DNA from: Kofleriaceae bacterium
GTDB taxonomy: Bacteria > Myxococcota_A > Polyangia > Haliangiales > Haliangiaceae
Length of the DNA stretch: 64,000 nucleotides
Reading direction: 5' to 3'
Assembly (NCBI GenBank): GCA_046597055.1
Contig: JBKJLC010000293.1
Coordinates: forward strand, 43,974 to 107,973
In this document: piece after piece, positions 16,659 through 34,669 of the stretch
Numbering within the stretch: the stretch's first letter is position 1
Layout of the letters: the number at the start of each line of letters is the position of its first letter
The notes under the pieces: generated by a model
Databases searched by the model: none
What the model saw: the letters and a program-made list of their open reading frames with translations, nothing else
What the model was told of the DNA's origin: nothing
Made by a program: the position numbers and the translations under genes

Positions 16659-17390
<732 letters not shown>

Positions 17391-17437
17391 CCGAGCGGGG
17401 CCCCTGGGTGCCCCGCGACGCGTGCTAAAGACTGGCG

Positions 17438-19204
<1,767 letters not shown>

Positions 19205-22722: not shown

Positions 22723-23769
22723 ATGAAGCCCAGCGTGTTCGTCCTGATCGTGCTGGCGGCCGGCTGCGGCCGGGACGAGCTCCGGGTGTCCGGCTCCACG
22801 TACGCTTACACTCCCGGCGCGCCGGACTGGATCTCTCAGCGGACGCATCTCCTTGCACCGCGCGCTGCACATGGGCTGGTCGCACTACCCGGCCGCGCGT
22901 TCCTCGTGATCGGCGGCGACCGCGGCAAGCTCGACTCGTCGCCCACGGTCGAGCCCGCGCTCGACATCGAGCGCTGCGTGCTCGGCGAACCCGCGTGTGT
23001 CGTTGTCGGCCGGCTCGCGCGTCCGACCGAACAACCGACGGTCGCGCGCGCGCCCGACGGGACGATCGTGGTCGCCGATTGGCGCGGACTTCAGATCTTC
23101 GATCCCGCCACCGGGACGACCGCGGAGGTCCCGGTGGCGCCACACACGATCGTCGCGACGGCCGCTGGCGTCGTCCTGCTCGGGATCGAGGGTGCGCGGG
23201 ATCGGACCACGAACCTCCCCGGGCCGTACCAGTTCGGCCTGTTCCGCGGCCAGGCCACGGGTCTCGAGCCGCTCGCGGCCGCCCCCAACGCGGCGTGGGC
23301 AGGCGGGGTGGATGTGCTCGACGGAGATCGCATCGTCACGGCATCGCGCACGAGCTCGGCGCTGCTCGACGTCGCGACCGAGACGTGGACGGTGCTACCG
23401 AGCCTGCCGACGGAGACGTTCACGACGCACGTGGTGCAGGTCGGGGACGGCCTCGTGCTCGCGATTCCCGACGGCGCTCCGAAGGCGTATTTGCTCTCGG
23501 CGGCCACGCTGCGTTGGACGGCCGTCGCCGTGCCCACGACCACGGACCATGTGCAGCACGCGCTCACGGTCCCGGGCGGGGCCGTGGTGGTCACCAGTGA
23601 CGGCGTCGGCGGCGCGACCCGTACGTTCCGCGTCAGCGATGGGTCCTGGCTCGCGGGCCCGCCCCCGCCGCCGTGGTCGATCCTGAACGCCGCGGTCGTG
23701 CTCGACGACGGCACGGTGATCTCGGTGGGAGGGTGCGACTCCAACTTCATCGACGCGCGCGCGTCGTGA
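22723..23769 (+). CDS. Kelch/beta-propeller-like lipoprotein
   Basis: Lipobox LAAGC; LVIGG, ETWTVLP, VISVGG Kelch-like blades. Confidence 0.55.
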   Translation: MKPSVFVLIVLAAGCGRDELRVSGSTYAYTPGAPDWISQRTHLLAPRAAHGLVALPGRAFLVIGGDRGKLDSSPTVEPALDIERCVLGEPACVVVGRLARPTEQPTVARAPDGTIVVADWRGLQIFDPATGTTAEVPVAPHTIVATAAGVVLLGIEGARDRTTNLPGPYQFGLFRGQATGLEPLAAAPNAAWAGGVDVLDGDRIVTASRTSSALLDVATETWTVLPSLPTETFTTHVVQVGDGLVLAIPDGAPKAYLLSAATLRWTAVAVPTTTDHVQHALTVPGGAVVVTSDGVGGATRTFRVSDGSWLAGPPPPPWSILNAAVVLDDGTVISVGGCDSNFIDARAS

Positions 23770-23837
23770 CCTGCGCTGGTCGCCTGCACGTGACCGGTGG
23801 CGGTCGGCCGGGCGTCGGCGACCGCGGCGGTGATGCG

Positions 23838-23909
23838 TACCCACGAAGGGAATCGAACCCTCTCCATCGGTTTGAAAGGCCGAGGTCCTGACCACTGGAC
23901 GACGCGGGC
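23838..23909 (-). tRNA. tRNA-Glu(TTC)
   Basis: Cloverleaf GCCCGCG/CGTGGGT, loop CT-TTC-AA, T-loop TTCGATT; no encoded CCA. Confidence 0.85.
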
Positions 23910-23923
23910 GGTGACAGACGGGG

Positions 23924-23991
23924 TGCCTCTGGCAGGAATCGAACCTGCTCACCAGGTGTCGGAGACCCGGGTCGGATCCGTCCACAGAGGC
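23924..23991 (-). tRNA. tRNA-Arg(CCG), reduced D-arm
   Basis: GCCTCTG/CAGAGGC-A, loop CT-CCG-AC, T-loop TTCGATT. Confidence 0.7.
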
Positions 23992-24002
23992 GAGAAACGC
24001 GG

Positions 24003-24076
24003 AGCCCACCGACGGATTCGAACCGTCCTCTCTCCCGTACCAGGGGGGTGTGTCCGACCAGGATCACCAGATGGGC
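24003..24076 (-). tRNA. tRNA-Thr(GGT)
   Basis: GCCCATC/GGTGGGC-T, loop CT-GGT-AC. Confidence 0.8.
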
Positions 24077-24089
24077 GTGAGCGTTGCGG

Positions 24090-24162
24090 TCGGGATCGAG
24101 AGGATCGAACTCTCCCATTTCGCCGTGTGAGAGCGACCTCACCCCCAGGTGAGCTGATCCCG
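24090..24162 (-). tRNA. tRNA with Val(CAC) anticodon and Pro-like acceptor stem
   Basis: CGGGATC/GATCCCG-A, loop CT-CAC-AC. Confidence 0.75.
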
Positions 24163-24169
24163 ATTTCAA

Positions 24170-24243
24170 TGGAGCACTCGCCCGGATTTGCACCGGGATG
24201 ACACGGTTTGCAGCCATGCGCCTGACTCTTCGGCCACGAGTGC
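24170..24243 (-). tRNA. tRNA-Cys(GCA)
   Basis: GCACTCG/CGAGTGC-U73-CCA, loop CT-GCA-AA, T-loop TGCAAAT. Confidence 0.88.
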
Positions 24244-24247
24244 GTGG

Positions 24248-24321
24248 TGGTGGACCCGGGGGGATTCGAACCCCCGTCTCTGCTGTGCGAGAGCAGGATC
24301 TTGCCGCTGGACGACAGGCCC
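24248..24321 (-). tRNA. tRNA-Ala(CGC)
   Basis: G3:U70, loop CT-CGC-AC, encoded CCA. Confidence 0.9.
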
Positions 24322-24335
24322 GGAAGGAACACGAG

Positions 24336-24408
24336 CGGCCCTGACGGGAATCGAACCCGCCTGGATCTCATAGACAGTGAGAGAACGTCACCAGACGTAT
24401 CCAGGGCC
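24336..24408 (-). tRNA. tRNA-Asp(GTC)
   Basis: GGCCCTG/CAGGGCC-G73, loop CT-GTC-TA, unusual long D-stem ACGTC/GACGT. Confidence 0.8.
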
Positions 24409-24430
24409 GTGAACGAGAGACGAATGATGT

Positions 24431-24504
24431 TGGTGGAGTCGGACGGATTCGCACCGTCGTCACTGACATGCCGAGCCAGTGTTCTGCTGTTGAACTACGA
24501 CCCC
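24431..24504 (-). tRNA. tRNA-Ala(GGC)
   Basis: G3:U70, loop TC-GGC-AT (C33), T-loop TGCGAAT, encoded CCA. Confidence 0.85.
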
Positions 24505-24508
24505 GGGG

Positions 24509-24581
24509 TCCCGTCGATGGGAATCGAACCCACCTGGTACTGGGAGACAGCCAGCTGACGTCACCAGACGTCTCCGACGAG
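24509..24581 (-). tRNA. tRNA with Asp(GTC) anticodon and atypical C1:G72/A73 acceptor
   Basis: CTCGTCG/CGACGGG-A, D-arm GACGTC-TGGT-GACGTC, loop CT-GTC-TC. Confidence 0.7.
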
Positions 24582-24591
24582 CAGACAGACG

Positions 24592-24662
24592 TGGAGCTGG
24601 AGGGAATCGCACCCCCGTCGCTGGCATGTCGGACCAGCATTCTGCTGTTGAACTACAGCTCC
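24592..24662 (-). tRNA. tRNA-Val(GAC)
   Basis: GGAGCTG/CAGCTCC-A, loop CC-GAC-AT (C33), T-loop TGCGATT. Confidence 0.8.
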
Positions 24663-24666
24663 TCAG

Positions 24667-24738
24667 TCGGAATGACAGGACTTGCACCTGCAGCCTCACC
24701 GTCCCGAACGGCGCGTTCTTCTATTGAACTACATCCCG
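24667..24738 (-). tRNA. tRNA-Pro(CGG)
   Basis: C1:G72, A73, loop TT-CGG-GA, T-loop TGCAAGT. Confidence 0.88.
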
Positions 24739-24841
24739 AGGCGGACGAGGGCCCGACCCGGGGGGGCCGGTCGGACAGGTCCTCGTCCTGTGGAAACATG
24801 AGAGCTCGGCCGCAGGCGCCGCCTGACGCGAACGTAGTGAG

Positions 24842-24927
24842 CGGAAGGAAAGGGAATCGAACCCTCGACACATGGATCCTGTGCGCGCGATTAGCAGTCG
24901 CGGTCCTCGACCAGCCGGACTCCTTCC
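24842..24927 (-). tRNA. tRNA-Ser(GCT)
   Basis: GGAAGGA/TCCTTCC-G73, loop CT-GCT-AA, long variable arm. Confidence 0.85.
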
Positions 24928-24999
24928 CGAACCGACCCACGACGGACGCTGACTGTCGACCGAGATCGGCAGCCGGGCTCCGGGGTGGGTATCGGTTTG

Positions 25000-25091
25000 C
25001 GGAGGGAGAGGGAGTCGAACCCCCAAGGCATCTCGAAGATGCTCGCGCGGCTTTCGAAACCGGCACCGTCGCCACATCGGCTTGCCCCTCC
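25000..25091 (-). tRNA. tRNA-Ser(CGA)
   Basis: GGAGGGG/TCCCTCC-G73, loop TT-CGA-AA, long variable arm. Confidence 0.85.
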
Positions 25092-25205
25092 AGATCGATG
25101 CCTCACGCGCCACCCTGCTGGCGCCACGACCGGGGCCATCACTCCCTGGTCGCGGCGCTCCGCCGCCGCCGCCCACCCGCCGCCACGTGTGTCAACGCGA
25201 GAGAG

Positions 25206-25754
25206 TCACGAGGCCAGCTCCCCGTCGCTCTCGATCTCGCCGGTCCAGTACAAGTAGTCACGCCACGCGTCAGGCATCGACCGCGTGCTGACCCTGATCG
25301 TCACCGCCGGCACCCAGGTCGGGCGCGCCGGCTCCATCCGCAGCTTCATCCCGGCCTCGGCCGGCGTCCGGTTGCCCTTCGATCCGTTGCACGGATAGCA
25401 GCAGGTCACGATGTTCTCCCAGGTGGTCTTGCCGCCGCGGGCACGGGGAACCACGTGGTCGTAGGTCAGCTCCGCCAGCGTGCACTTGGTCGCGCAGTAC
25501 TGGCACTTGTAGCCGTCACGCGCGTAGATGTTCACGCGCGAGAACTTGACGGGCTTGCGGTATCGCCGGAACGCACGGATCAACCGCACGACCGCCGGCA
25601 CCTTGATGATGAGCGTCACCGCTCGGATCTCGGCGTCGTACTCCTCGACCACCTCCACCTTGCCGAGGGTCAGGAGGGTGATCGCCCGCTGCCACGGGAT
25701 GACCTTGATGGGCTCGTACCCCTGCGACAGGAGCAGCGTCGTCGCGTGACTCAT
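25206..25754 (-). CDS. HNH endonuclease (McrA-like) embedded in the tRNA array
   Basis: RDGYKCQYC, TYDHVVPRARGG, WENIVTCCYPCNGSKG; AGGA upstream. Confidence 0.92.
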   Translation of the reverse strand: MSHATTLLLSQGYEPIKVIPWQRAITLLTLGKVEVVEEYDAEIRAVTLIIKVPAVVRLIRAFRRYRKPVKFSRVNIYARDGYKCQYCATKCTLAELTYDHVVPRARGGKTTWENIVTCCYPCNGSKGNRTPAEAGMKLRMEPARPTWVPAVTIRVSTRSMPDAWRDYLYWTGEIESDGELAS

Positions 25755-25816
25755 GACGGTCCGTGTTCCTTTCCCCGGTCACTGTCTTTCAGGCGCGCCC
25801 CGGTGCCAGCGCGCCA

Positions 25817-25838
25817 TCGGCCCACGACGTGTGGGCAA
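25817..25838 (-). promoter_or_regulatory. Putative Ro-binding bulged-C hairpin in the HNH leader
   Basis: TTGCCCAC-ACGTC-GTGGGC-C-GA, the same motif as in the Y-like RNAs. Confidence 0.5.
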
Positions 25839-25851
25839 AAACTGCGTGTCG

Positions 25852-25926
25852 TGCCCTCCGTCGGATTCGAACCGACACTGCCCAGATTCTGAGACTGGTG
25901 ACTCCTTCCAGTTGGTCTAGGAGGGC
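25852..25926 (-). tRNA. tRNA-Leu(CAG), short variable loop
   Basis: GCCCTCC/GGAGGGC-A, loop CT-CAG-AA, 5-nt variable region. Confidence 0.82.
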
Positions 25927-25927
25927 G

Positions 25928-26004
25928 TGGAGTGATCGACGGGACTCGCACCCGCTAGGACGAGGTTCACGGCCTCGCGCCTGGACGACTTTGGCTTCGA
26001 TCAC
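25928..26004 (-). tRNA. tRNA-His(GTG), lacking G-1:C73
   Basis: GTGATCG/CGATCAC-U73-CCA, loop CC-GTG-AA (C33), T-loop TGCGAGT. Confidence 0.78.
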
Positions 26005-26006
26005 GG

Positions 26007-26077
26007 TCCGCCCGGGAGGAATCGCACCTCCGTCGTCCGGTTATCGGCCGGGTGCTCTGCTGTTGAGCTACGGGTGG
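26007..26077 (-). tRNA. tRNA-Ile(GAT)
   Basis: CCACCCG/CGGGCGG-A, loop CC-GAT-AA (C33), T-loop TGCGATT. Confidence 0.75.
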
Positions 26078-26084
26078 GAAAGAC

Positions 26085-26212
26085 TGGGGTGGGTGGCCTG
26101 GATTCGAACCTGGCATCTGCGGCTCCCTGAGAACCCTCTTCTGACGGCCCGGTGACGGGCAAGCTGACGAGGAGGGGCCATAACCGCCGTCCTGCCACTG
26201 GACGACACCCAC
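26085..26212 (-). ncRNA. tRNA-Y RNA chimera 1 (permuted Ro-binding module in the anticodon loop)
   Basis: Acceptor GTGGGTG/CACCCAC-C-CCA, D and T arms intact, ~55-nt insert containing CTTGCCCG-TCAC-CGGGCCGT...GGGTTCTC. Confidence 0.75.
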
Positions 26213-26226
26213 GTACGAAGTAGCAG

Positions 26227-26353
26227 TGCAGGCAGCTGGACTCGAACCAGCGTCACACGCGTTAACACGATAACCATCCAGCGTCGGCCCGCGACCGGGC
26301 GAGGTGAGTACAGGACGGATCCACGTTGCGCTACCGGGCTGAGCTACACCTGC
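26227..26353 (-). ncRNA. tRNA-Y RNA chimera 2
   Basis: GCAGGTG/TGCCTGC-A; insert CCGTCC...CTCGCCCG-GTCG-CGGGCCGA...GGATGGTTATCG. Confidence 0.8.
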
Positions 26354-26374
26354 GAAGAAACACAACACGAGTCG

Positions 26375-26499
26375 TGTGGACGGCCGGAGTCGAACCGGCG
26401 CGTGCGGTTTGCGACGATAACCGACTTCGACGGCCCGTGACCGGGCGAGGGTTGTGAAGACGAGATCTTTCCGCCGTCCTACCGTTAGACGACGTCCAC
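26375..26499 (-). ncRNA. tRNA-Y RNA chimera 3
   Basis: GTGGACG/CGTCCAC-A; insert CTCGCCCG-GTCA-CGGGCCGT...CGGTTATCG. Confidence 0.8.
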
Positions 26500-26504
26500 G
26501 TGCG

Positions 26505-26632
26505 TGCAGGTGGCTGGATTCGAACCAGCGGCCAACGGATTGATAATCGATGACCATCCGACATCGGCCCGTCGCCGGGCGAGGTTGTGAAGGACGGGTT
26601 TACGTTGCTCTACCGGACTGAGCTACACCTGC
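26505..26632 (-). ncRNA. tRNA-Y RNA chimera 4
   Basis: GCAGGTG/CACCTGC-A; insert CCGTCC...CTCGCCCG-GCGA-CGGGCCGA...GGATGGTCATCG. Confidence 0.8.
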
Positions 26633-26647
26633 AAAGAAAAACATGCG

Positions 26648-26719
26648 TCTGGATGACTGGAATCGCACCAGCGGCCTCGTGATCCCCGAACACGCGCCCT
26701 GCTCCTGAGCTACACCCAG
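26648..26719 (-). tRNA. tRNA-Pro(GGG)
   Basis: C1:G72, A73, loop TC-GGG-GA (C33), T-loop TGCGATT. Confidence 0.82.
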
Positions 26720-26720
26720 A

Positions 26721-26819
26721 TGGGGCGGGACTTTGGATTCGAACCATGTAGACCGATAACCATCCATCGTTCGGCCCGTTTCCGGGCAAGGGCACTTTGA
26801 TAGACGGACTCGTCCCGCC
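26721..26819 (-). ncRNA. D-armless tRNA-Y RNA chimera 5 (acceptor, Ro module and T-loop)
   Basis: GGCGGGAC/GTCCCGCC-CCA; CCGTCT...CTTGCCCG-GAAA-CGGGCCGA...GGATGGTTATCG; TGG-TTCGAAT-CCA. Confidence 0.75.
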
Positions 26820-26824
26820 AGAAG

Positions 26825-26894
26825 TCGCAACGGAAGGACTCGAACCTTCACCGGCGCGGATATGAGCCGCGCGTCCTCGCCCGAGGTCGCTGCG
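26825..26894 (-). tRNA. tRNA-CAT (Met or Ile2), reduced D-loop
   Basis: CGCAGCG/CGTTGCG-A, loop CT-CAT-AT. Confidence 0.72.
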
Positions 26895-26895
26895 A

Positions 26896-26966
26896 TGGGG
26901 CAACGGCGGGAGTCGCACCCACTGACCGGCGGGAACCCCGCCGGTCCTCCACGCGAACTCGTTGCC
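26896..26966 (-). tRNA. Degenerate tRNA-like gene (GTT at the tip of an over-paired arm)
   Basis: GGCAACG/CGTTGCC acceptor and TGCGACT T-loop, but the anticodon arm is a perfect 10-bp hairpin. Confidence 0.45.
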
Positions 26967-26971
26967 ACGAG

Positions 26972-27038
26972 CACGCCGCCAGAGAATCGAACTCTGCAGT
27001 CCGGGGTTGGAATCCAGACTCTTCCCAGAAGGCGACGC
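26972..27038 (-). tRNA. tRNA-Trp(CCA), minimal D-arm
   Basis: GCGTCGC/GCGGCGT-G73, loop TT-CCA-AC. Confidence 0.7.
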
Positions 27039-27107
27039 AAGTTGCAAGCATCAACATGTCACTTCCACTCCCCTCCAGTTACAGCTCGAGAATAGAAGTG
27101 GCGATCG

Positions 27108-27177
27108 TGCCACCGACAGGATTCGAACCCGTACCGACGACGTTCGTAGCGTCGCGTCCCATCCTCGGGACGGTGGC
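27108..27177 (-). tRNA. tRNA-Arg(ACG)
   Basis: GCCACCG/CGGTGGC-A, loop CT-ACG-AA. Confidence 0.82.
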
Positions 27178-27179
27178 AG

Positions 27180-27372
27180 ACAGGCAAGTGGCTGTGTTGG
27201 AGTGCGCCTTGTTCAGGGGCGCGGCGTCCAGAGCGCGCGGTTGCCCGTTTACGCTCGTCGACACGCACGCGGCGATCTACGAGAGACCGCCTCGCGCTGG
27301 CTCGCATCGGTCGCCCGATGGTCGCTACCTTGGGCCCGTTATAGTTACGGTAACCAACACATTCCGGCCCGT
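27180..27372 (-). ncRNA. Y-like RNA carrying a 23S rRNA helix-69 mimic
   Basis: 5' ACGGGC-C-GG-AA-TGTGTTGG pairs with 3' CCAACACA-GCCAC-TT-GCCTGT; interior starts with CCGTAACTATAACGGGCCCAAGGTAGCGA (27322-27350); bounded by tRNAs on both sides. Confidence 0.75.
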
Positions 27373-27376
27373 GACG

Positions 27377-27449
27377 TATCCCTGGGGGGAATCGAACCCG
27401 CCATACCTGGTTTGAGAGACCAGTAGACTGACCACTGTCTGACAGGGAC
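27377..27449 (-). tRNA. tRNA-Glu(CTC)
   Basis: GTCCCTG/CAGGGAT-A, loop CT-CTC-AA. Confidence 0.85.
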
Positions 27450-27499
27450 ATCTTCGCGTGGCGCTTGCGCCCAAGGCGCCTCACGCCACGCGATCTTCG

Positions 27500-27572
27500 A
27501 GGGCCCGGCGGGAATCGAACCCGCACCTCGCAGTTTAACAGACTGCCGCTCAGCCAGTTGAGCTTCGGACCC
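27500..27572 (-). tRNA. tRNA-Asn(GTT)
   Basis: GGGTCCG/CGGGCCC-U73, loop CT-GTT-AA. Confidence 0.85.
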
Positions 27573-27644
27573 AGACACGCCACGGTCGTGAGACCGCGGC
27601 GCGTGCGTGTTGAGGGCGACTCTCGTCGTGGCCTGGGCCGAAGC

Positions 27645-29282
27645 CTAGGCGCGGGCGAAGTCGCTGATCACCGGCGGCGTCGCCGTGTCGAAACCGACCA
27701 CGTCGAGCATGCCGGCGTCGTTCGGGTCCGCGATCGTGAACCCGTTCGAGGTCATCCCGACCACCACCAGCTTGGCCGGGATGCCGCGCGCCTGTCGATA
27801 GGCGCGCAGGGCCTGGGCCGGGTGCACGCTCCCGGCCCAGGTCTCGCTGTCCGTGTACACCACGAAGGTGTCCACATCCACCTTGTGCCGCTGCGCCCAG
27901 ATCATCGGGAGCGCGCAGTCGGTTCCACCCATCGGCAGCTTGGCGACCGCCGCGACCACGTCGTCGAGCCGCTGGCGCGGCGAGATCGACAGGGTCGTGA
28001 TGCCCGACTCGCCACCGCCGTGCATGCCGCCGTAGCCACCGCTCGCCGCGGTGAAGCCCACGAACGTGTGGTCACGCTCGGTCGCCGCGGTGATCAGCGC
28101 CATCGCCGCGCTGCCGACCCGCGGCGTCAGGCCGGGCACCCCGGCGATGGTGCCGCACGCCATCGAGCCCGACACGTCGAGCGCGAGCAGCATGCGCTTG
28201 CCGGCCGGCTCGACCGCCTTGAACGAGGCGTAGAACGCACCGTCCAGGGCGTCGATGATCGGCGTCACCGGCGTCCAGGTGCCGCTGCCACGGACGCTCT
28301 TGCCACCCTGGTAGGTCAGGAGCGCCGCCAGGACCGCGACCGGGTGGACGCGGGCCTTGGCGATCCGGTTCGCATCACCCAGCCGCGCGACCACGGTGTT
28401 GGTCGCGTTGGCACCCGGCGCGAGCAAGCCCGCACGGGTCATCGTGGCCAGGTTCCGGATCATCGCCGTCATGGGCATGTCGACCAGCAGCGCGTCCCAC
28501 ACGCCGGCGTCGTTCAGCCAGCGCGTCGGCAGCGTCTCGCGCGGCAGCCGGAACTCGCGCACCAGCGCCGCCACCTCGGCCGCAGTACCGGCCGCCTTCA
28601 CCGCCTCCATGCCGATCAGCAACCGCAGCGCCGGGTCGGCGCTCGCGCCATCCGGCACGGTTCCCTTGGTCACCCACGAGAACAGCCGATCGTGCGATGG
28701 CGACGCGGCGCGCGGGTGCGCGAGCCGCAGCAGGTCTCGGTTCGACCAGCCGTCCCGCTGCTGGTACTTCACCAGCTGCAGCGCGAGGTCGGCCGCCGGC
28801 TTGTCGTTGAACCAGCCGGCCACCGCCTTGCGCATGCCACGGCCCCAGCCGCCGAAGCCCTGCGCGTACTCCGCGAAGTGCATGAGGTGAGTGCCGATGC
28901 GGCAGACCGTCGGCAGGGCAGCGTAGGCGCTCTTGCGAGTCGCCTCGTCGCCGAGCTTGGCGGCCAGCGCCAGGGCGAAGATCGCCGGGTCGTTCTTGGG
29001 CGCCCGACCCGCCTGCGAGATCTCGGCGATCCGCGCGACCGTGCGCGGACCGTCGGCTGCCACGCAGCGGACCACCGTCTGGGCAGTCTCGAGCGTCAGC
29101 TTCTGCTCGGAGATGTAGTAGGTGCCGCCCTCGCTACCCAGGATGAGGAAGCGATCGAGCCGCGCCCAGTCGTCGACCGGCCAGGCGAAGCCCCCGGCCA
29201 GGTTCGGCACCTGCGCCGTACCCGGGATCGGCTGCGACTGCGGCGTCGCCTGCGTCGAGAAGAACTTGGTGAACTTGAACAC
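27645..29282 (-). CDS. rsr: Ro60/Rsr (TROVE + vWA) RNA-binding protein, 545 aa
   Basis: NLAGGFAW, RFLILGSEGGTYY, GGWGRGMRKAV, KYQQRDGWSNRDLLRLAHP, AMIRNL, MIDAS LDVSGSM, GGTDCALP, YTDSETW, GMLDVVGFD; GGAGG 6 nt before GTG at 29282. Confidence 0.96.
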   Translation of the reverse strand: MFKFTKFFSTQATPQSQPIPGTAQVPNLAGGFAWPVDDWARLDRFLILGSEGGTYYISEQKLTLETAQTVVRCVAADGPRTVARIAEISQAGRAPKNDPAIFALALAAKLGDEATRKSAYAALPTVCRIGTHLMHFAEYAQGFGGWGRGMRKAVAGWFNDKPAADLALQLVKYQQRDGWSNRDLLRLAHPRAASPSHDRLFSWVTKGTVPDGASADPALRLLIGMEAVKAAGTAAEVAALVREFRLPRETLPTRWLNDAGVWDALLVDMPMTAMIRNLATMTRAGLLAPGANATNTVVARLGDANRIAKARVHPVAVLAALLTYQGGKSVRGSGTWTPVTPIIDALDGAFYASFKAVEPAGKRMLLALDVSGSMACGTIAGVPGLTPRVGSAAMALITAATERDHTFVGFTAASGGYGGMHGGGESGITTLSISPRQRLDDVVAAVAKLPMGGTDCALPMIWAQRHKVDVDTFVVYTDSETWAGSVHPAQALRAYRQARGIPAKLVVVGMTSNGFTIADPNDAGMLDVVGFDTATPPVISDFARA

Positions 29283-29288
29283 GGCACG

Positions 29289-29348
29289 CCTCCGGCCCAC
29301 GCGGTGGGCACTGCTGGTTGGGCTCGGCCACGCACCATGCGCGGCGAG
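29289..29348 (-). promoter_or_regulatory. Two bulged-C Ro-type hairpins in the rsr leader, one overlapping the SD
   Basis: CTCGCCGCGCA-TGG-TGCGTGGC-C-GAG (29323-29348) and TGCCCAC-CGC-GTGGGC-C-GGAGG (29289-29310). Confidence 0.5.
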
Positions 29349-29444
29349 CGAGATCTGTAATGAGGAATCGCTTCGCGAAGCGCTCGATGCCTCCCGGCGG
29401 CATCGCCGCCGCACCACCGGAGGTGGCGGACTGGCGAGTCTTCG

Positions 29445-29516
29445 AGCCGGTCGGAGGAATCGAACCTCGTTGGGTCGCTTACGGAACGACTGCTCGCCCA
29501 GCGAGCTACGACCGGC
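29445..29516 (-). tRNA. tRNA-Thr(CGT), 8/4-type fold
   Basis: 8-bp acceptor GCCGGTCG/CGACCGGC-U, 4-bp T-stem GAGG/CCTC, loop TC-CGT-AA (C33). Confidence 0.75.
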
Positions 29517-29521
29517 GGAAA

Positions 29522-29587
29522 CTGGCGGACAAGTGGCACTCGTGGGGGTCTGTTATCAGGAGAACCCACGAGCATCGGCCCGCGCAG
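29522..29587 (-). ncRNA. Minimal Y RNA (canonical orientation)
   Basis: GCGGGC-C-GA-TG-CTCGTGGG-TTCTCC...CCCACGAG-TGCCAC-TT-GTCCGC; lies between two tRNAs just upstream of rsr. Confidence 0.8.
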
Positions 29588-29658
29588 AGCGGCGCGCGGG
29601 AGTTGCACCCGCACGGTCAGGGTGGAGGCCTGGCATGCTGCTGTTACATCAGCGCCGC
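29588..29658 (-). tRNA. tRNA-Gly(TCC)
   Basis: GCGGCGC/GCGCCGC-U73, loop CC-TCC-AC (C33), T-loop TGCAACT. Confidence 0.82.
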
Positions 29659-29668
29659 GACACGAAAG

Positions 29669-29739
29669 AGCAGGTGGTGGGAATCGAACCCGCGATCCCG
29701 GCATGGCGTACCGGTGTGTCACCACAACACTTCACCTGC
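29669..29739 (-). tRNA. tRNA-Gly(GCC)
   Basis: GCAGGTG/CACCTGC-U73, loop AC-GCC-AT (C33). Confidence 0.82.
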
Positions 29740-29822
29740 GGCGGTGTGCCTCGAGTGTCCTCGGGGCCACCTGACGGTCGTCGGCGCGCTCGGCAGGGCT
29801 TCGCGCGTCGACGAACGCATCG

Positions 29823-29897
29823 TGGGTCGGGCGGGAATCGAACCCGCGTCGGGGCAGATTAAGAATCTGCTGCAAAGCCAGCGTTTGCTACCGACCC
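29823..29897 (-). tRNA. tRNA-Lys(CTT)
   Basis: GGGTCGG/CCGACCC-A, loop TT-CTT-AA. Confidence 0.88.
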
Positions 29898-29926
29898 AGT
29901 TGCCGCGCCAGGCGCGGCGAGTCTCG

Positions 29927-29999
29927 TCCCACCCCCTGGAATCGAACCAGGACCTCTCGGGCTTCAGCCAAGCGCGCAGACCACATGCGCCAGGGTGGG
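29927..29999 (-). tRNA. tRNA-Phe(GAA)
   Basis: CCCACCC/GGGTGGG-A, loop CT-GAA-GC. Confidence 0.82.
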
Positions 30000-30088
30000 G
30001 TTGTGCGGTCGCCGCCGACCGCTGGGGAGCGGGTGACGACGACCTTCCGAAATGGGCGCCCGCGCTACCGGGCGCCCCATCATTCGTC

Positions 30089-30107
30089 TCTTCGGTTGTC
30101 AGAGATC
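30089..30107 (-). promoter_or_regulatory. boxA-like antitermination element
   Basis: GATCTCTGACAACCGAAGA resembles rrn leader/spacer boxA sequences; located near the 5' end of the array. Confidence 0.5.
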
Positions 30108-30177
30108 CACCCCGCGCGTCCGTCGGCCCGTGCGGGCAGACCTCGAGCGGGGCCGCGCCGTTTCATGGGCGCAGCAG

Positions 30178-30251
30178 TACCGGGCCCAGGATTCGAACCT
30201 GGATCTGTACGGTTCAGAGCCGTCCGTCGTGCCGAGTTGGACCAGCCCGGT
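30178..30251 (-). tRNA. tRNA-Gln(CTG)
   Basis: ACCGGGC/GCCCGGT-A, loop CT-CTG-AA. Confidence 0.85.
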
Positions 30252-30303
30252 GCGTGTCAGTAAGTGCGTCGATCGCCAGTCCCATGACTGACAACGATCG
30301 CAG

Positions 30304-30388
30304 TGGGGCGCCCAGGTTTTGAACCTGGCGGGTCGCGTGCGACGGCGGCTTTACAGGCCGCCCCGTCTCCATAGCGGTCTATCGCCCC
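30304..30388 (-). tRNA. tRNA-Tyr(GTA), first gene of the array
   Basis: GGGGCGA/GCGCCCC-A, loop CT-GTA-AA, long variable arm. Confidence 0.85.
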
Positions 30389-30408
30389 GAGGGTGCTGCC
30401 GGAACGGC

Positions 30409-30447
30409 AACGAGAAAGGGCCACCTGGGTTCGTCCCGGGTGGCCCT
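30409..30447 (-). terminator. Putative intrinsic terminator (attenuator) upstream of the array
   Basis: AGGGCCACCCGGG-ACGAA-CCCAGGTGGCCCT followed by TTCTCGTT. Confidence 0.65.
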
Positions 30448-30477
30448 GTTCACGGAGCTTGAGAGAGTGCTCTCGAG

Positions 30478-30672
30478 CTAGGTGGGAGGGGCCCCCCTGG
30501 GATCCTGACCGCCGCGGACGGCGCGATTCGCGAGACCGAAGATCTCTTCGATCTTCAGGCACTTGGCGGCGAAGCTGGACGTCAGACACCAGCTCAACTG
30601 CGCGGAAACGCGCCCTTGCGGCGAGCCAGATGGCATCGCATAGGCAAGGTGATGGAGCGAGGTGGTGTTCAT
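30478..30672 (-). CDS. Putative leader peptide (64 aa, ends DPRGAPPT)
   Basis: ORF stops about 30 nt before the terminator; its last codons are complementary to the terminator 5' arm; no strong SD, start uncertain. Confidence 0.45.
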   Translation of the reverse strand: MNTTSLHHLAYAMPSGSPQGRVSAQLSWCLTSSFAAKCLKIEEIFGLANRAVRGGQDPRGAPPT

Positions 30673-30805
30673 GGCGGGTGCTTCGACGTCCGAGGTTTCG
30701 TTTGGTTCTGCTTTTTTCCGTCCCGAACCGGTGCCAGCCTGTGCCGCCCTTCCGTCCGGGTCCCCTGCGATCCGCTCAGTGCAGCAGTCGCGGGTTGATG
30801 ATCTG

Positions 30806-30834
30806 TGCTTAAAGGGTCTGGCCTCCGAAGTCAA
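30806..30834 (-). promoter_or_regulatory. Candidate sigma70-type promoter of the RNA operon
   Basis: TTGACT-17 nt-TAAGCA with an AT-rich upstream tract; the -10 is imperfect. Confidence 0.35.
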
Positions 30835-30932
30835 ACTCCAATCGAAATTATCTCAGAACTAACAGTCACCATTCGAGTTTCGTCGTCGAGGTCGTCGTCG
30901 CAACCGTCGGTGTGCGGCCGTGTCCACCGGAC

Positions 30933-31745
30933 ATGAGCGTGAGCGGCACGAATGGCACGAACGGTTCGATGGTAGCCACGGAGAGCTCGGTTCTGGTGTC
31001 GTTGCGGGAGCTTCGAGAGATCGAGGACCGCCGGCTGGTCGAGCGGAAGGAGGCGGCAACCGCCCGCGAGGTGGCCCAGACCCGGGCCTGGGAGGAGGCG
31101 GTGGCGCGGCGCGCGCGCGAGCGGACCGAGCGCGAGGCGGCCGAGGCGGCCGAGGCAGCGCGGTGCGCGGCCGCGCAGGAGCACGCGGCGCGCGCCGACG
31201 CCCTCCGGCTCGCGGCGGTCGAGGCGCAGGCGCGGGCCGAGGCCATGGTCCGGATCGAGGTCGAGCGCGCCAGCCTGGAAGTGGCGCTGCGCCGCGCGGA
31301 GCTCGAGCGGCGGCGTCCCCGCTGGCTCATGACGATCACCGCGGGCATGGCCGCGGTGGCGCTCGCGGTGGGATGGCTGGCGGTCGAGGCGCAGGACGCC
31401 GCCCGCGCGCAGCAGCGCGCCGCCGCCCGCGCGCAGGCCGAAGCCGCGAGCTCGCGGCAGGAGCTCGCGCGCCGGGTCGCGCAGGCCGACGTGCTGGGGC
31501 GCAAGATCGCGGACGCGCGGGCCGCGCTCGAGGCAGAGCGGCGGCGGGTCGAGCGCGCGAAGTCGCAGGCGCAGGCCGAGTGGAACCGTGTCCATGGCGG
31601 CAGTCGCCCCAAGCCCGGCAGTGGCAAGGGTGGCGCCGGCACTGGCAAGGGCGGTCGCGGGAAAGGCAATGGCAGTGGTGGCGGCGTGACTGACAGTCCC
31701 CCGGCCGGCGCGGTCAAGGTCTGTACGGACGGTGTCTTCTGCTGA
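30933..31745 (+). CDS. Hypothetical coiled-coil membrane protein
   Basis: ESSVLVSLRELREIE N-terminal motif, coiled coil, one TM, Gly-rich tail ending in a Cys pair. Confidence 0.6.
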   Translation: MSVSGTNGTNGSMVATESSVLVSLRELREIEDRRLVERKEAATAREVAQTRAWEEAVARRARERTEREAAEAAEAARCAAAQEHAARADALRLAAVEAQARAEAMVRIEVERASLEVALRRAELERRRPRWLMTITAGMAAVALAVGWLAVEAQDAARAQQRAAARAQAEAASSRQELARRVAQADVLGRKIADARAALEAERRRVERAKSQAQAEWNRVHGGSRPKPGSGKGGAGTGKGGRGKGNGSGGGVTDSPPAGAVKVCTDGVFC

Positions 31746-31864: not shown

Positions 31865-34669
31865 GTGCCCGCGCGCTACCTGATCGGCGTCGATCTCGGG
31901 ACGACCAACACCGCGGTCGCCTACGTGGACACGCGCGCGACCGACCCACGCGTGAAGGTGTTCGAGGTCGTGCAGCTGGTTGCCCCCGGTGAGGTCGCCC
32001 CTCGCCGGCAGCTGCCATCGTTCCTGTACCTGCCGGGCGAGCACGATCTGGCGCCTGCCGAGACCGCGCTGCCGTGGCGACCGGTCGGCGCCGCCGGCGA
32101 CAACCGCATCGTGGTCGGCGAGCTCGCCCGTCACCAGGGCGCGCGCAACCCGTCGCGGATGATCGCCTCGGCCAAGTCCTGGCTGTGCCACCCGGGCGTC
32201 GACCGCAAGGCCGCCATCTTGCCGTGGGGCGAGGGCAGCGGACCGCGGCTGTCGCCGGTGGCCGCCCAGGCAGCGATCCTCGCGCACGTGCGGGCGGCCT
32301 GGGACGACCTGATGTCCGGGGAACCGGACAGCCAGTTCGTGGCCCAGGACGTCGTGGTCACCTGCCCCGCCTCGTTCGACGAGGCCGCCCGCGAGCTGAC
32401 CCAGGAGGCGGCCGCGCTGGCCGGCCTCGAGCGGGTGGTGCTGCTCGAGGAGCCCCAGGCGGCGTTCTATGCCTGGATCGATCGCCACCACAGCCGGGCC
32501 CGCACGCTCGCGCCCGGCGAGCGCGTGCTGGTGTTCGACGTCGGCGGCGGGACGTCGGACTTCACGCTGATCACGGTCGACGCCGACGGCGGCTTCGAGC
32601 GCACCGCGGTCGGCGATCATCTGCTCCTCGGTGGCGACAACGTCGACCTGACCCTGGCCAAGCTGGTCGAGCAGCGGCTCACCGCCGATGGCGGCAAGAA
32701 GCTCGATGCCCTCCAGTGGCACGGTCTGGTCCACGCCTGCCGGCTGGCCAAGGAGACGCTGCTGGGCGACGCCGCCCCGGCCGAGGTGCCGATCACCGTC
32801 GCCAGCCGCGGCTCGCGCTTGATCGGCGGCACGCTGCGCGACCAGATCACGCGCGCGGAGCTCGAGCGGGTGCTGTTCGACGGCTTCTTCCCGGTCGCGA
32901 CCGCCGACGCCACCCCGGTCCGCGGCCGCGGCGGCCTGCAGGAGATGGGGCTGCCGTACGCGAGCGACCCGGCGGTGACGCGGCACCTGGCGTCGTTCCT
33001 GGCCCGCCACGGCGCGGCCCGGGTCGACGCGGTGCTGTTCAATGGTGGCGCCATGACTCCAGTCGCGCTGCGCGCGCGCGTGCTCGGGCAGCTGGCGGCG
33101 TGGCAGCCCGATGCGCCACCCCCGCGCGAGCTCGAGGCGATCGCACCCGAGCTGGCGGTCGCCGTGGGCGCCGCCTATTACGGGCTGGTCCGGCGCGGCC
33201 TGGCGACCCGCATCCGCGGTGGTACTCCGCGCGCGTTCTACATCGGCGTGGCGCGCGTGGCGGCGTCGGGCGGCGTCGCCGCGGCGCGGGTCGAGACCCA
33301 CACCGCGGTGTGCCTGGCCGGCAAGGGTCTCGACGAGGGCACCACGGTCGAGCTCGACCGCGACTTCGAGCTGGTGACCAACCGTCCGGTGCGGTTCCGG
33401 TTGTACTCGTCGAGCACGCGGACTGACCCGCCCGGCACGCTGGTGCCGATCGGCGATGGCCGCGCCGACACGATCGACGACGGCTCCGATCTGCTCGAGC
33501 TGCCGCCGATCGTCACGGTGCTGCGCGCGCGCGGCAAGAGCGCGGTCACGGTCCGGGTCCAGGCGACCGTCACCGAGCTGGGCGCGGTCGAGATCTGGTG
33601 CCACGACGTCGCCGATCCGACCGCGCGCTGGCGGCTATCGTTCGACGTACGCTCGGGTGGCTCGCCGGCGGCCGACGACGACACCGCGGCCAGCGCGGCG
33701 CCGCACCCGCGCATCGACGAGGCCAAGGCGCGCGTGACCGACGGGTTCCGCGGCGACCCCGGGCTGCTGGCGCCGCTCACGCGCGAGCTCGAGGAGATGC
33801 TCGAGGCGCGGCGCGACGAGTGGTCGATGCACGCGACCCGCGCGCTGTTCGACGCCCTGGCCGACGTGGTCGAGACCCGGCGTCGGTCGGCCGATCACGA
33901 GCAGCGCTGGCTCGGCCTGGCCGGGTTCTGCCTCCGGCCCGGCACCGGCGCCCCGCTCGACGCCTGGCGGGCGCGCCAGATGTGGGGCGTGTTCAACGAG
34001 GGGCTGGTCCACGGCAAGACCGAGGCGTCGCGGCTGGCCTGGTGGATCGTGTGGCGGCGGATCGCCGGCGGCCTCATCCCGGGCCAGCAGGAGCAGATCT
34101 ACGACCGGCTGGCGACGCTGCTGTTGCCGAGCGCGCGCCAGCAGAAGAAGCTGAGCGAGATCAAGCCGTCGAAGCAGGAGCTCGGTGAGATGTGGCGCGC
34201 GGTCGCCAGCCTCGAGCGCATCCCGGTCGCGCACAAGCTGAAGCTCGGCGACGAGCTGATGCGGCGGATGGAGACCCGCAAGGGTCGCGAGGACGCTGTC
34301 CACCTGTGGGCGCTCGGCCGGATCGCCGCGCGGGTACCGCTGTACGGGCCGCTCAACACGGTCGTGCCGGCGTCGAAGGCGGCGGCGTGGCTCGACCAGC
34401 TGCTGGTGTGGGACTGGCCGGAGCCCGACAAGGTCGCCTTCTCGCTGGCGCAGCTCGGCCGGCGCACCGACGACCGCACCCGCGAGCTCTCGGAGCCGCT
34501 GCGCGCGCGCCTGGCCGCCTACCTGCGCGGGCAACCCGGCGGCGACCGCGCCGCGATCCTGGTCGAGCAGGTGGTCGCGCTCGAGGCCCGCGAGGAGCGG
34601 GTCGCGCTCGGCGACACGCTGCCGGCCGGCTTGCGGCTGATGGTCGACGACCCGCCGCCCCCGGCGTGA
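31865..34669 (+). CDS. Large Hsp70-like protein with C-terminal extension (DUF3731-like)
   Basis: GVDLGTTN, EEPQAAF, DVGGGTSD; C-terminal GFCLRPG, WRRIAGGL, WALGRIAARVPLYG. Confidence 0.88.
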   Translation: MPARYLIGVDLGTTNTAVAYVDTRATDPRVKVFEVVQLVAPGEVAPRRQLPSFLYLPGEHDLAPAETALPWRPVGAAGDNRIVVGELARHQGARNPSRMIASAKSWLCHPGVDRKAAILPWGEGSGPRLSPVAAQAAILAHVRAAWDDLMSGEPDSQFVAQDVVVTCPASFDEAARELTQEAAALAGLERVVLLEEPQAAFYAWIDRHHSRARTLAPGERVLVFDVGGGTSDFTLITVDADGGFERTAVGDHLLLGGDNVDLTLAKLVEQRLTADGGKKLDALQWHGLVHACRLAKETLLGDAAPAEVPITVASRGSRLIGGTLRDQITRAELERVLFDGFFPVATADATPVRGRGGLQEMGLPYASDPAVTRHLASFLARHGAARVDAVLFNGGAMTPVALRARVLGQLAAWQPDAPPPRELEAIAPELAVAVGAAYYGLVRRGLATRIRGGTPRAFYIGVARVAASGGVAAARVETHTAVCLAGKGLDEGTTVELDRDFELVTNRPVRFRLYSSSTRTDPPGTLVPIGDGRADTIDDGSDLLELPPIVTVLRARGKSAVTVRVQATVTELGAVEIWCHDVADPTARWRLSFDVRSGGSPAADDDTAASAAPHPRIDEAKARVTDGFRGDPGLLAPLTRELEEMLEARRDEWSMHATRALFDALADVVETRRRSADHEQRWLGLAGFCLRPGTGAPLDAWRARQMWGVFNEGLVHGKTEASRLAWWIVWRRIAGGLIPGQQEQIYDRLATLLLPSARQQKKLSEIKPSKQELGEMWRAVASLERIPVAHKLKLGDELMRRMETRKGREDAVHLWALGRIAARVPLYGPLNTVVPASKAAAWLDQLLVWDWPEPDKVAFSLAQLGRRTDDRTRELSEPLRARLAAYLRGQPGGDRAAILVEQVVALEAREERVALGDTLPAGLRLMVDDPPPPA

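Follow-up and report, generated by a model that had tools for sequence, protein, structure and literature searches.

Just upstream of rsr, the gene of a Ro60 orthologue, a Kofleriaceae genome carries a short hairpin that an initial annotation took for a minimal bacterial Y RNA with animal-like sequence. The locus raises two questions: whether this hairpin is a Y RNA, and how far its likeness to animal Y RNAs extends. We addressed them in the window, by which we mean the whole stretch of 64,000 nucleotides analysed, and in related rsr loci and genomes.

Place and fold of the hairpin

The hairpin claimed by the initial annotation is present, the string quoted there being the reverse complement of positions 29525-29583. 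With three outer pairs (CUG/CAG) included it spans 66 nt, or about 71 nt, reaching 29517, if it is cut at the ends of the flanking tRNAs (Table 1). Folded alone, it has a minimum free energy of -28.2 kcal/mol, against a mean of -18.6 (sd 2.9) for 200 dinucleotide shuffles, of which 1 in 200 was as stable. A Y-RNA-style pairing, drawn after the Rfam Y_RNA consensus, fits the hairpin at -22.6 kcal/mol vs a minimum of -28.8 for the 71-nt form. The structure consists of two stems of 11 and 8 pairs with a small internal loop between them and an 18-nt apical region edged by UUCUCC and CCCC. Both stems are intact, all 19 modelled pairs are standard, and in the upper stem GUG (29568-29566) is paired with CAC (29545-29543). 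The hairpin was also said to lack a tRNA-like domain, and indeed neither ARAGORN nor Rfam finds a tRNA inside it, the loop being too short for such a domain; yet real tRNA genes, unremarked at the time, adjoin both ends.

Table 1. Coordinates of the hairpin, its parts and the neighbouring features in the window
Feature	Positions	Strand	Description
Hairpin-type Y RNA candidate	29522..29587	minus	fold z -3.26; R1 71.2 bits, R2 52.6 bits
Lower (Ro60-docking) stem, 5' strand	29575..29583	minus	GCGGGCCGA = GCGGGC-C-GA, bulged C at 29577
Lower stem, 3' strand	29525..29532	minus	UUGUCCGC; columns 170-177 of alignment A2
Upper stem, 5' strand	29565..29572	minus	CUCGUGGG, contains GUG
Upper stem, 3' strand	29539..29546	minus	CCCACGAG, contains CAC
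UUCUC, 5' edge of the loop	29560..29564	minus	family consensus there UUAUC
tRNA-Gly(UCC)	29587..29658	minus	ARAGORN; Rfam tRNA 42.4 bits; directly upstream of the hairpin, no encoded CCA
tRNA-Thr(CGU)	29444..29516	minus	ARAGORN; Rfam tRNA-Sec model 26.5 bits, below gathering
rsr (Ro60 orthologue), 590-aa ORF	27645..29417	minus	Pfam vWA_Ro60 8.2e-64, TROVE 5.3e-45
Accessory tRNA array, 25 genes	23837..30388	minus	ARAGORN; encloses rsr and both Y-like RNAs
HNH endonuclease gene within the array	25206..25754	minus	Pfam HNH_5 4e-16; GC3 0.94
Y-like RNA, YrlA-type	26150..26295	minus	R1 27.3 bits, E 8e-4; Rfam YrlA 18.5 bits, E 0.13 (gathering 69)

The first base of the hairpin is the last ARAGORN base of tRNA-Gly(tcc) (0 nt), and tRNA-Thr(cgt) follows 5 nt past the stem; the ends of the covariance-model match lie 0 and 3 nt from the flanking tRNAs. 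The rsr ORF begins 26 bases beyond tRNA-Thr(cgt), about 105 nt downstream of the hairpin on the same strand, although the true start of rsr may lie further inside the 590-aa ORF. The encoded Rsr matches Ro60/Rsr entries of the PDB with E-values of 1e-128 to 1e-130, and rsr is the sole TROVE gene in its genome (8.4 Mb, 303 contigs).

As Chen 2014 asks of a bacterial Y RNA, the hairpin lies within 4 kb of a Ro60 orthologue on the same strand (hairpin end 29522, rsr ORF start 29417, both minus), and its ends form a stem with a Ro-docking motif near the 5' end. This motif is GCCGAUG in the window and GCCGAAG or GCCGAGG in relatives; the window copy deviates from the published GNCGAAN0-1G at one position, with U for the second A, and it carries UUCUC where the family has UUAUC. 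Its form is that of a hairpin-type second Y RNA (Yrn2/YrlB-like). According to the parts of Chen 2014 (PMC4201824) drawn on here, hairpin Y RNAs occur in all three bacteria studied, the GNCGAAN0-1G motif resembles vertebrate GGUCCGA, and Yrn2 shares the stretches that matter for Ro60 binding. The one-hairpin Yrl2 of phage phiLo binds the phage Ro60 in EMSA (PMC12135203, in the portion used). These examples make a minimal Y RNA that lacks such a domain, the tRNA-like one, a known kind.

With Deinococcus radiodurans Yrn2, S. Typhimurium and M. smegmatis YrlB and Thermus phage phiLo Yrl2, which were likened to it by their descriptions and not by sequence, the hairpin shares proximity to rsr on the same strand, a long end-formed stem with a Ro60-docking sequence, a small loop with pyrimidine-rich edges (UUCUCC...CCCC in the hairpin) and a tRNA-like Y RNA in the same locus. 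Unlike these RNAs, its gene is embedded in a tRNA array, the stem being separated from its two neighbouring tRNA genes by 0 and 5 nt. M. smegmatis YrlB, as described in the consulted part of Chen 2014 (PMC4201824), has a possible T arm, which the hairpin lacks. Judged by the docking stem, the linkage to rsr and the covariation presented below, the earlier identification of the hairpin as a Y RNA is very probable; that it belongs to the plain-hairpin class, like Yrn2, YrlB and phage Yrl2, we put at roughly three chances in four. A well-supported candidate would thereby be added to the Kofleriaceae/Haliangiales (Myxococcota), a lineage with few before. The accessible text of Chen 2014 (PMC4201824) mentions comparatively few YrlA RNAs in delta-proteobacteria and the discarding of candidates that overlapped tandem tRNA genes.

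A family of covarying hairpins beside rsr

Relatives of Rsr were confirmed in 251 stretches, from which 80 loci were kept; these are relatives of one Rsr and not independent samples. The nearest are encoded in MAGs labelled Kofleriaceae, Haliangiales and Myxococcales (66-86% identity), followed at 53-66% by Chloroflexota, Actinomycetota, Armatimonadota and others. A motif scan turned up short hairpins of like form in four loci and extended ones in two, and the covariance model R1 was built from the window hairpin together with the four locus hairpins (5 seeds). Over the window and the 80 rsr loci (599,799 bases), R1 gave 87 matches at E ≤ 1, with at least one match in 50 of the 80 loci; 82 of the 85 matches in the loci fall on the rsr strand. 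Most matches (64 of 87) are at most 90 nt long, and several of the 23 longer ones contain a T-loop motif.

The matches mostly lie about 50-300 nt upstream of rsr on its strand. This placement would also suit a cis-acting rsr leader, that is, an Rsr-binding or structure-dependent autoregulatory element and not a free RNA, and several relatives, L011, L034 and L035 among them, have no tRNA between the hairpin and rsr. In the window and in L003, L004, L005, L006, L010, L015 and L052, however, a tRNA-Thr gene intervenes, so that RNase P would part the hairpin from rsr. Many loci have two or three tandem copies, some copies are located downstream of rsr, and hairpin Y RNAs accumulate free in the excerpts of Chen 2014 (PMC4201824) used here, all of which makes a leader function unlikely.

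The reading as a Y RNA gains further from alignment A2, which comprises 87 sequences. Pairing holds in 89.7% of its cells, vs 68.8% after shuffling and 42-46% with slid partners; A2 was fitted to the structure of the model, which inflates pairing, and because the alignment leans towards that structure the slid-partner control is the fairer one. Changes on both sides were observed in 17 of the 19 pairs, including all 8 pairs of the upper stem across the 87 sequences, and none of 500 shuffles reached the observed values. Distal as well as proximal pairs covary freely, while the docking letters are near-invariant: GGGC is kept in 79-85 of the 87 sequences, the bulged C in 85 and the next G in all 87. 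At the loop edge, U is found in 85, U in 86, A in 76 (C in 10), U in 65 and C in 84 of the 87. The hairpin is thus shown to be a conserved, covarying stem-loop with a Ro60-docking helix (GGGC-C-GA / UUGYCC, bulged C), on the rsr strand beside rsr.

At two positions conserved in the family the window copy has a letter of its own (GAU where the consensus is GAA/GAG, UUCUC where it is UUAUC), and it scores below its relatives on the Rfam models of Y families, as might be expected if it were a decayed or silent Y RNA gene whose stem has been kept by recent descent. Other members of the family nevertheless carry the same variants (the A position is occupied by C in 10 of the 87 sequences, and column 14 by U in 22 of them), the stems show no sign of erosion, and the copy belongs to the top-scoring kind of R1 match, though it is one of the five seeds, and also scores well with the second model, R2 (Table 1). 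Decay is accordingly quite unlikely.

R1 has a single match in the 8.4-Mb genome of origin, the hairpin itself (150 of 3066 candidates scored). The model R2, derived from A2, was used at E ≤ 0.01 to search 121 genomes of the order, G000 among them, scoring 36 candidates in each, and matched 41 places in 33 genomes. All 41 are on the rsr-bearing contig, at most about 5.6 kb from the gene. The Pfam domain vWA_Ro60 is present in 67 of the 121 genomes, a tally that counts the unpublished genomes G059 and G067, and these 67 include all 33 with an R2 match; among the 54 genomes without the domain, none was matched. Under the strict filters and with 36 candidates scored each, 34 of the 67 rsr-positive genomes gave no R2 match. 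The training set of R2 was drawn from rsr loci of this very genome collection, so that its positives follow in part from how it was built and only the lack of off-target matches counts as independent. It is through related sequences, namely the single R1 match in the genome of origin and the family-wide results, that the hairpin stands out from chance.

This specificity also bears on whether the hairpin is a structural spacer of the array that has nothing to do with Rsr, such as a weak terminator or an RNase III/E processing site. Its GC-rich sequence, its seat among tRNA genes and the GUUUCC behind it would suit such an element. The models match none of the other spacers of the array, nor any other part of the genome, and in the 121 genomes they point to rsr contigs only; conservation falls precisely on the letters that make up the Ro-docking helix; and among the six terminator-like sites found in 23500-31000 (3.4 expected), none is at the hairpin. 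A mere spacer is therefore very unlikely. In the same interval no promoter-like site was found (0.4 expected). Among 20 sequencing runs, those labelled as RNA contained small shares only; contigs from four runs (X15, X17, X18, X20) align only over 29584-29755, which corresponds to two tRNA-Gly genes; they show many differences, represent RNA of other organisms and are silent on expression of the hairpin.

Likeness to animal Y RNAs and to YrlA

The initial annotation placed the hairpin nearer to metazoan Y and stem-bulge RNAs (sbRNAs) than to YrlA, and proposed a comparison with Rfam models. A scan of the whole window at gathering thresholds gave 16 matches, all tRNA, and a scan of 501 nt at E ≤ 10 gave 9 matches, none to a Y family. 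When 81 nt were scanned against 4227 families, the top match was the nematode sbRNA family RF01656 (ceN72-3_ceN74-2), with 22.2 bits and an E-value of 0.0062; Y_RNA (RF00019) scored 12.3 bits (E 2.7), which is not significant alone. Both alignments span the two stems end to end, and both scores are below the gathering value of 38. For YrlA (RF02553, gathering 69) there was no match to the hairpin at E ≤ 10 in either the 501-nt or the 81-nt scan. Since the region had been pre-selected, these E-values are weak alone. The similarity to sbRNA and Y_RNA models that had been anticipated is thus seen, at scores that on the window copy do not reach gathering, and the ordering relative to YrlA is borne out to that extent.

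The relatives give clearer results. In 7 of 9 loci scanned at E ≤ 1 (all except L020 and L051), the strongest short hairpin matched RF01656 at 46.9, 35.8, 34.9, 33.3, 31.1 or 29.7 bits or RF00019 at 34.4 bits. One of them, L054:2228-2302, passes the RF01656 gathering score of 38 with 46.9 bits; in a gathering scan of 20 loci, 149 of the best 150 of 166 rows were tRNA and the remaining one was RF01656 on this hairpin.

The signature of sbRNAs and vertebrate Y RNAs, in the parts of two articles drawn on here (PMC4450293, PMC4726728), comprises a lower stem with a bulged C, a UG/CA upper stem and UUAUC; CeN72 and CeN74-2 are sbRNAs (Kowalski 2015, PMC4450293, same limits). The window hairpin has the bulged-C lower stem and the (A/G)UG-CA(C/U) upper stem, and its bulged C, its stems and GUGGGUU.U/CCCAC line up with the Rfam Y_RNA consensus, at the low score given above. 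At the 5' end of the loop it has UUCUC instead of UUAUC. With metazoan Y RNAs (RF00019) and sbRNAs (RF01656) it therefore shares the single bulged C, the upper stem centred on UG/CA and a UUAUC-like motif, and it differs from them in UUCUC, in a much shorter loop and in being a gene of a bacterial tRNA operon. Metazoan Y RNAs are Pol III genes with a La-bound 3' oligo-U tail, whereas this hairpin is bacterial, with UUUCC and next a tRNA gene downstream of it. Its common ground with YrlA (RF02553) is the rsr partner gene and the kind of docking stem, and unlike YrlA it has no T, D or acceptor-like arms.

Across the family, the consensus runs from the upper stem into UGGGUUAUC. The tRNA-like Y RNAs in the phage and Chloroflexota loci examined share a stem of the form GGGCCG...GGUUAYC, and the tRNA-like L084:3820-3948 of a Gordonia phage scores 41.7 bits with R2, 42.2 with YrlA and 31.8 with RF01656. 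As tRNA-like forms in the wider group carry the same stem and GGUUAYC, the contrast between the hairpin and YrlA stems chiefly from the hairpin having no tRNA-like insert and from how the Rfam YrlA model is composed, and the idea that the hairpin is animal-like as opposed to YrlA-like is weakened to that degree. Judged from sequence comparison, the metazoan resemblance is real at the level of the family.

The motif TGGGTTATC occurs at 41 sites in 1.2 Mb (both strands counted). Of these, 31 are within R1 matches, and 14 of the 23 long R1 matches contain it. The remaining 10 sites share the strand of rsr without exception and are located at L041:1524, L051:2114, L053:2003 and 2460, L055:2774, L058:2054 and 2433, L060:2323, L064:2425 and L067:2745; they are probably further Y RNAs that R1 missed at E ≤ 1.

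The suggestion that the hairpin bears on the origin of the animal Ro-Y RNP finds no support in the protein. Rsr scores 439.9 bits against human Ro60, 437.6 bits against that of Xenopus and 432.5 bits against Deinococcus Rsr, and these near-equal PDB scores give no sign of a special closeness to animal Ro60. Its identity to actinophage Ro proteins is 38-51%.

It is possible, though doubtful, that the hairpin belongs to a wide family of Y RNAs of bacteria and phages not described before (in Myxococcota, Chloroflexota, Actinomycetota, phages and others) which keeps a three-part eukaryotic core of bulged-C stem, UG/CA stem and UGGGUUAUC. In animals this last motif is credited with activity in DNA replication and not with binding of Ro60. 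If the core was inherited or transferred together with Ro60, the ancestral partner of the core would be the Ro60 RNP itself. A review (PMC4726728, citing Perreault 2007) states, in the portion consulted, that bacterial Y RNAs are not homologous with the vertebrate clades. Literature naming UUAUC together with Y RNA was, by titles and abstracts, not bacterial, and reviews may already cover the point. On structural contact between Ro60 and the upper stem, the literature search yielded reviews only.

Published work already includes bacterial Y RNAs whose Ro site resembles that of vertebrates, as well as second Y RNAs of the hairpin type. What appears mildly new, from the sequences compared, is the seat of the hairpin between tRNA genes in an accessory array enclosing rsr, along with the family-wide animal-type UGGGUUAUC core. 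The arrangement of hairpin, tRNA and rsr is not described in the parts drawn on of Chen 2014 (PMC4201824) or of a Listeria phage study. The conservation of this animal Y RNA/sbRNA motif beside a bacterial docking stem may be of interest to the Ro60 field.

The tRNA array, proposed processing and a second Y-like RNA

The array qualifies as an accessory set, since all 24 anticodon species of its 25 genes have copies elsewhere in the genome, which has 91 tRNAs by ARAGORN. A CCA end is encoded in only 3 of the 25. Genes flanking the array stretch are ordinary chromosomal ones, and megablast of 27000-31000 against phage records gave no match. DUF2760, an Hsp70-like gene and an Hsp70+DUF3731 gene are found at 16659-19204 and 31865-34669, on either side of the array stretch.

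Of the 87 R1 matches, 25 are bordered, at a distance of no more than 12 nt, by a tRNA on their own strand; in five of these (window, L003, L015, L030, L052) this is so on both sides. The order Gly(tcc), hairpin, Thr(cgt), rsr is identical in the closest relatives; in others the hairpin comes after Thr(cgt), Gly(gcc), Asn(gtt), Arg(gcg) or no tRNA. As the preceding tRNA differs among relatives, the hairpin is a separate module and not part of one tRNA. We also considered that tRNA-Gly(UCC) and the hairpin form one split YrlA-like unit, which the varied or missing preceding tRNA refutes.

These tRNA-flanked slots suggest that the hairpin is freed on its upstream side by tRNA 3'-end processing and on its downstream side by RNase P. 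The hairpin would be transcribed within the precursor of the tRNA array; trimming at the 3' end of tRNA-Gly(UCC), a tRNA that encodes no CCA, would create the 5' end of the hairpin, and an RNase P cut at tRNA-Thr(CGU) its 3' end, yielding an RNA of about 66-71 nt. The locus is thus probably a clean case in which RNase P and tRNA 3' processing define both ends of a Y RNA. Enzymes of tRNA processing also free other small RNAs, among them those of plant tRNA-snoRNA units, MALAT1 mascRNA and herpesvirus tRNA-miRNA units. Their ends are likewise set by tRNA structures, an analogy of mechanism that implies no homology. In bacteria, one precursor gives rise to both YrlA and YrlB of M. smegmatis, and RNase P cuts YrlA in vitro (Chen 2014, PMC4201824, as far as drawn on here).

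Once released, the plain-hairpin Y RNA is expected to bind the outer surface of Rsr through its lower stem. Because it has no tRNA-like effector module, it would most likely gate the Rsr ring or compete for access to it, or else stabilise Rsr. The second Y-like RNA of the array (26150-26295) may serve differently. Its docking stem, GCGGGCCGA...CUUGCCCGU, is the same as in the hairpin and encloses, in the order of YrlA, a T arm (GCUGGUUCGAGUCCAGC) and a hairpin resembling a D arm; this T-arm-bearing RNA could act as a tether for a nuclease such as PNPase. Folded alone (146 nt), it is no better than shuffles (z -0.26), so that its support comes from the model match, the T arm and conservation, the 5' half of the element being kept downstream of rsr in 15 related loci. 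With one tRNA-like and one hairpin Y RNA, the locus fits the pattern of one of each per species in the sections consulted of Chen 2014 (PMC4201824).

Across the 80 related loci, rsr is commonly enclosed by accessory tRNA arrays, and this, with the Y RNAs built into them, is of possible interest to the Ro60 field. At least one ARAGORN tRNA was observed within 3 kb in 62 of the 80 loci, and five or more in 46, the labels of the MAGs concerned being Myxococcota, Chloroflexota, Actinomycetota, Cyanobacteria and others. The 53-66% identity of Rsr between phyla suggests that the cassette of rsr and tRNA array moves horizontally. On the doubtful reading of a Y RNA family with a eukaryotic core set out above, the rsr/Y-RNA/tRNA-array cassette (46 of 80 loci, several phyla) would be a mobile tRNA-surveillance module with Y RNAs matured by tRNA punctuation. 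No literature pairing a tRNA array with Ro60 was found, though reviews may already cover the point; phage records already place Ro genes among tRNA and HNH genes. In Streptomyces phage TunaTartare, for example, tRNAs, HNH endonucleases and a Ro-like gene form a trio as in the window.

Several minor observations concern the tRNAs themselves. The D loop of tRNA-Gly(UCC) (29587-29658, minus) lacks the usual GG, and its T loop, UGCAACU, has G where U55 is expected. The same odd D and T loops were observed in 7 of the 22 listed tRNA-Gly(tcc) genes (L003, L008, L011, L031, L037, L052 and the window), and the tRNA-Gly(UCC) adjoining the hairpin may be a non-standard or non-decoding tRNA. Rfam further detects a tRNA at 26007-26077 (minus; 52.1 bits), just downstream of the YrlA-like element, that is missing from the ARAGORN list. 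Finally, Rfam tRNA matches of 120-155 nt are present in related loci (L020:5541-5665, L006:5795-5921, L034:5818-5943, L057:6414-6567, L076:2528-2678 and others), some of them overlapping the region homologous to the YrlA-like element of the window; these may be either tRNAs that contain large inserts or Y RNAs of tRNA-like form that the tRNA model spans.
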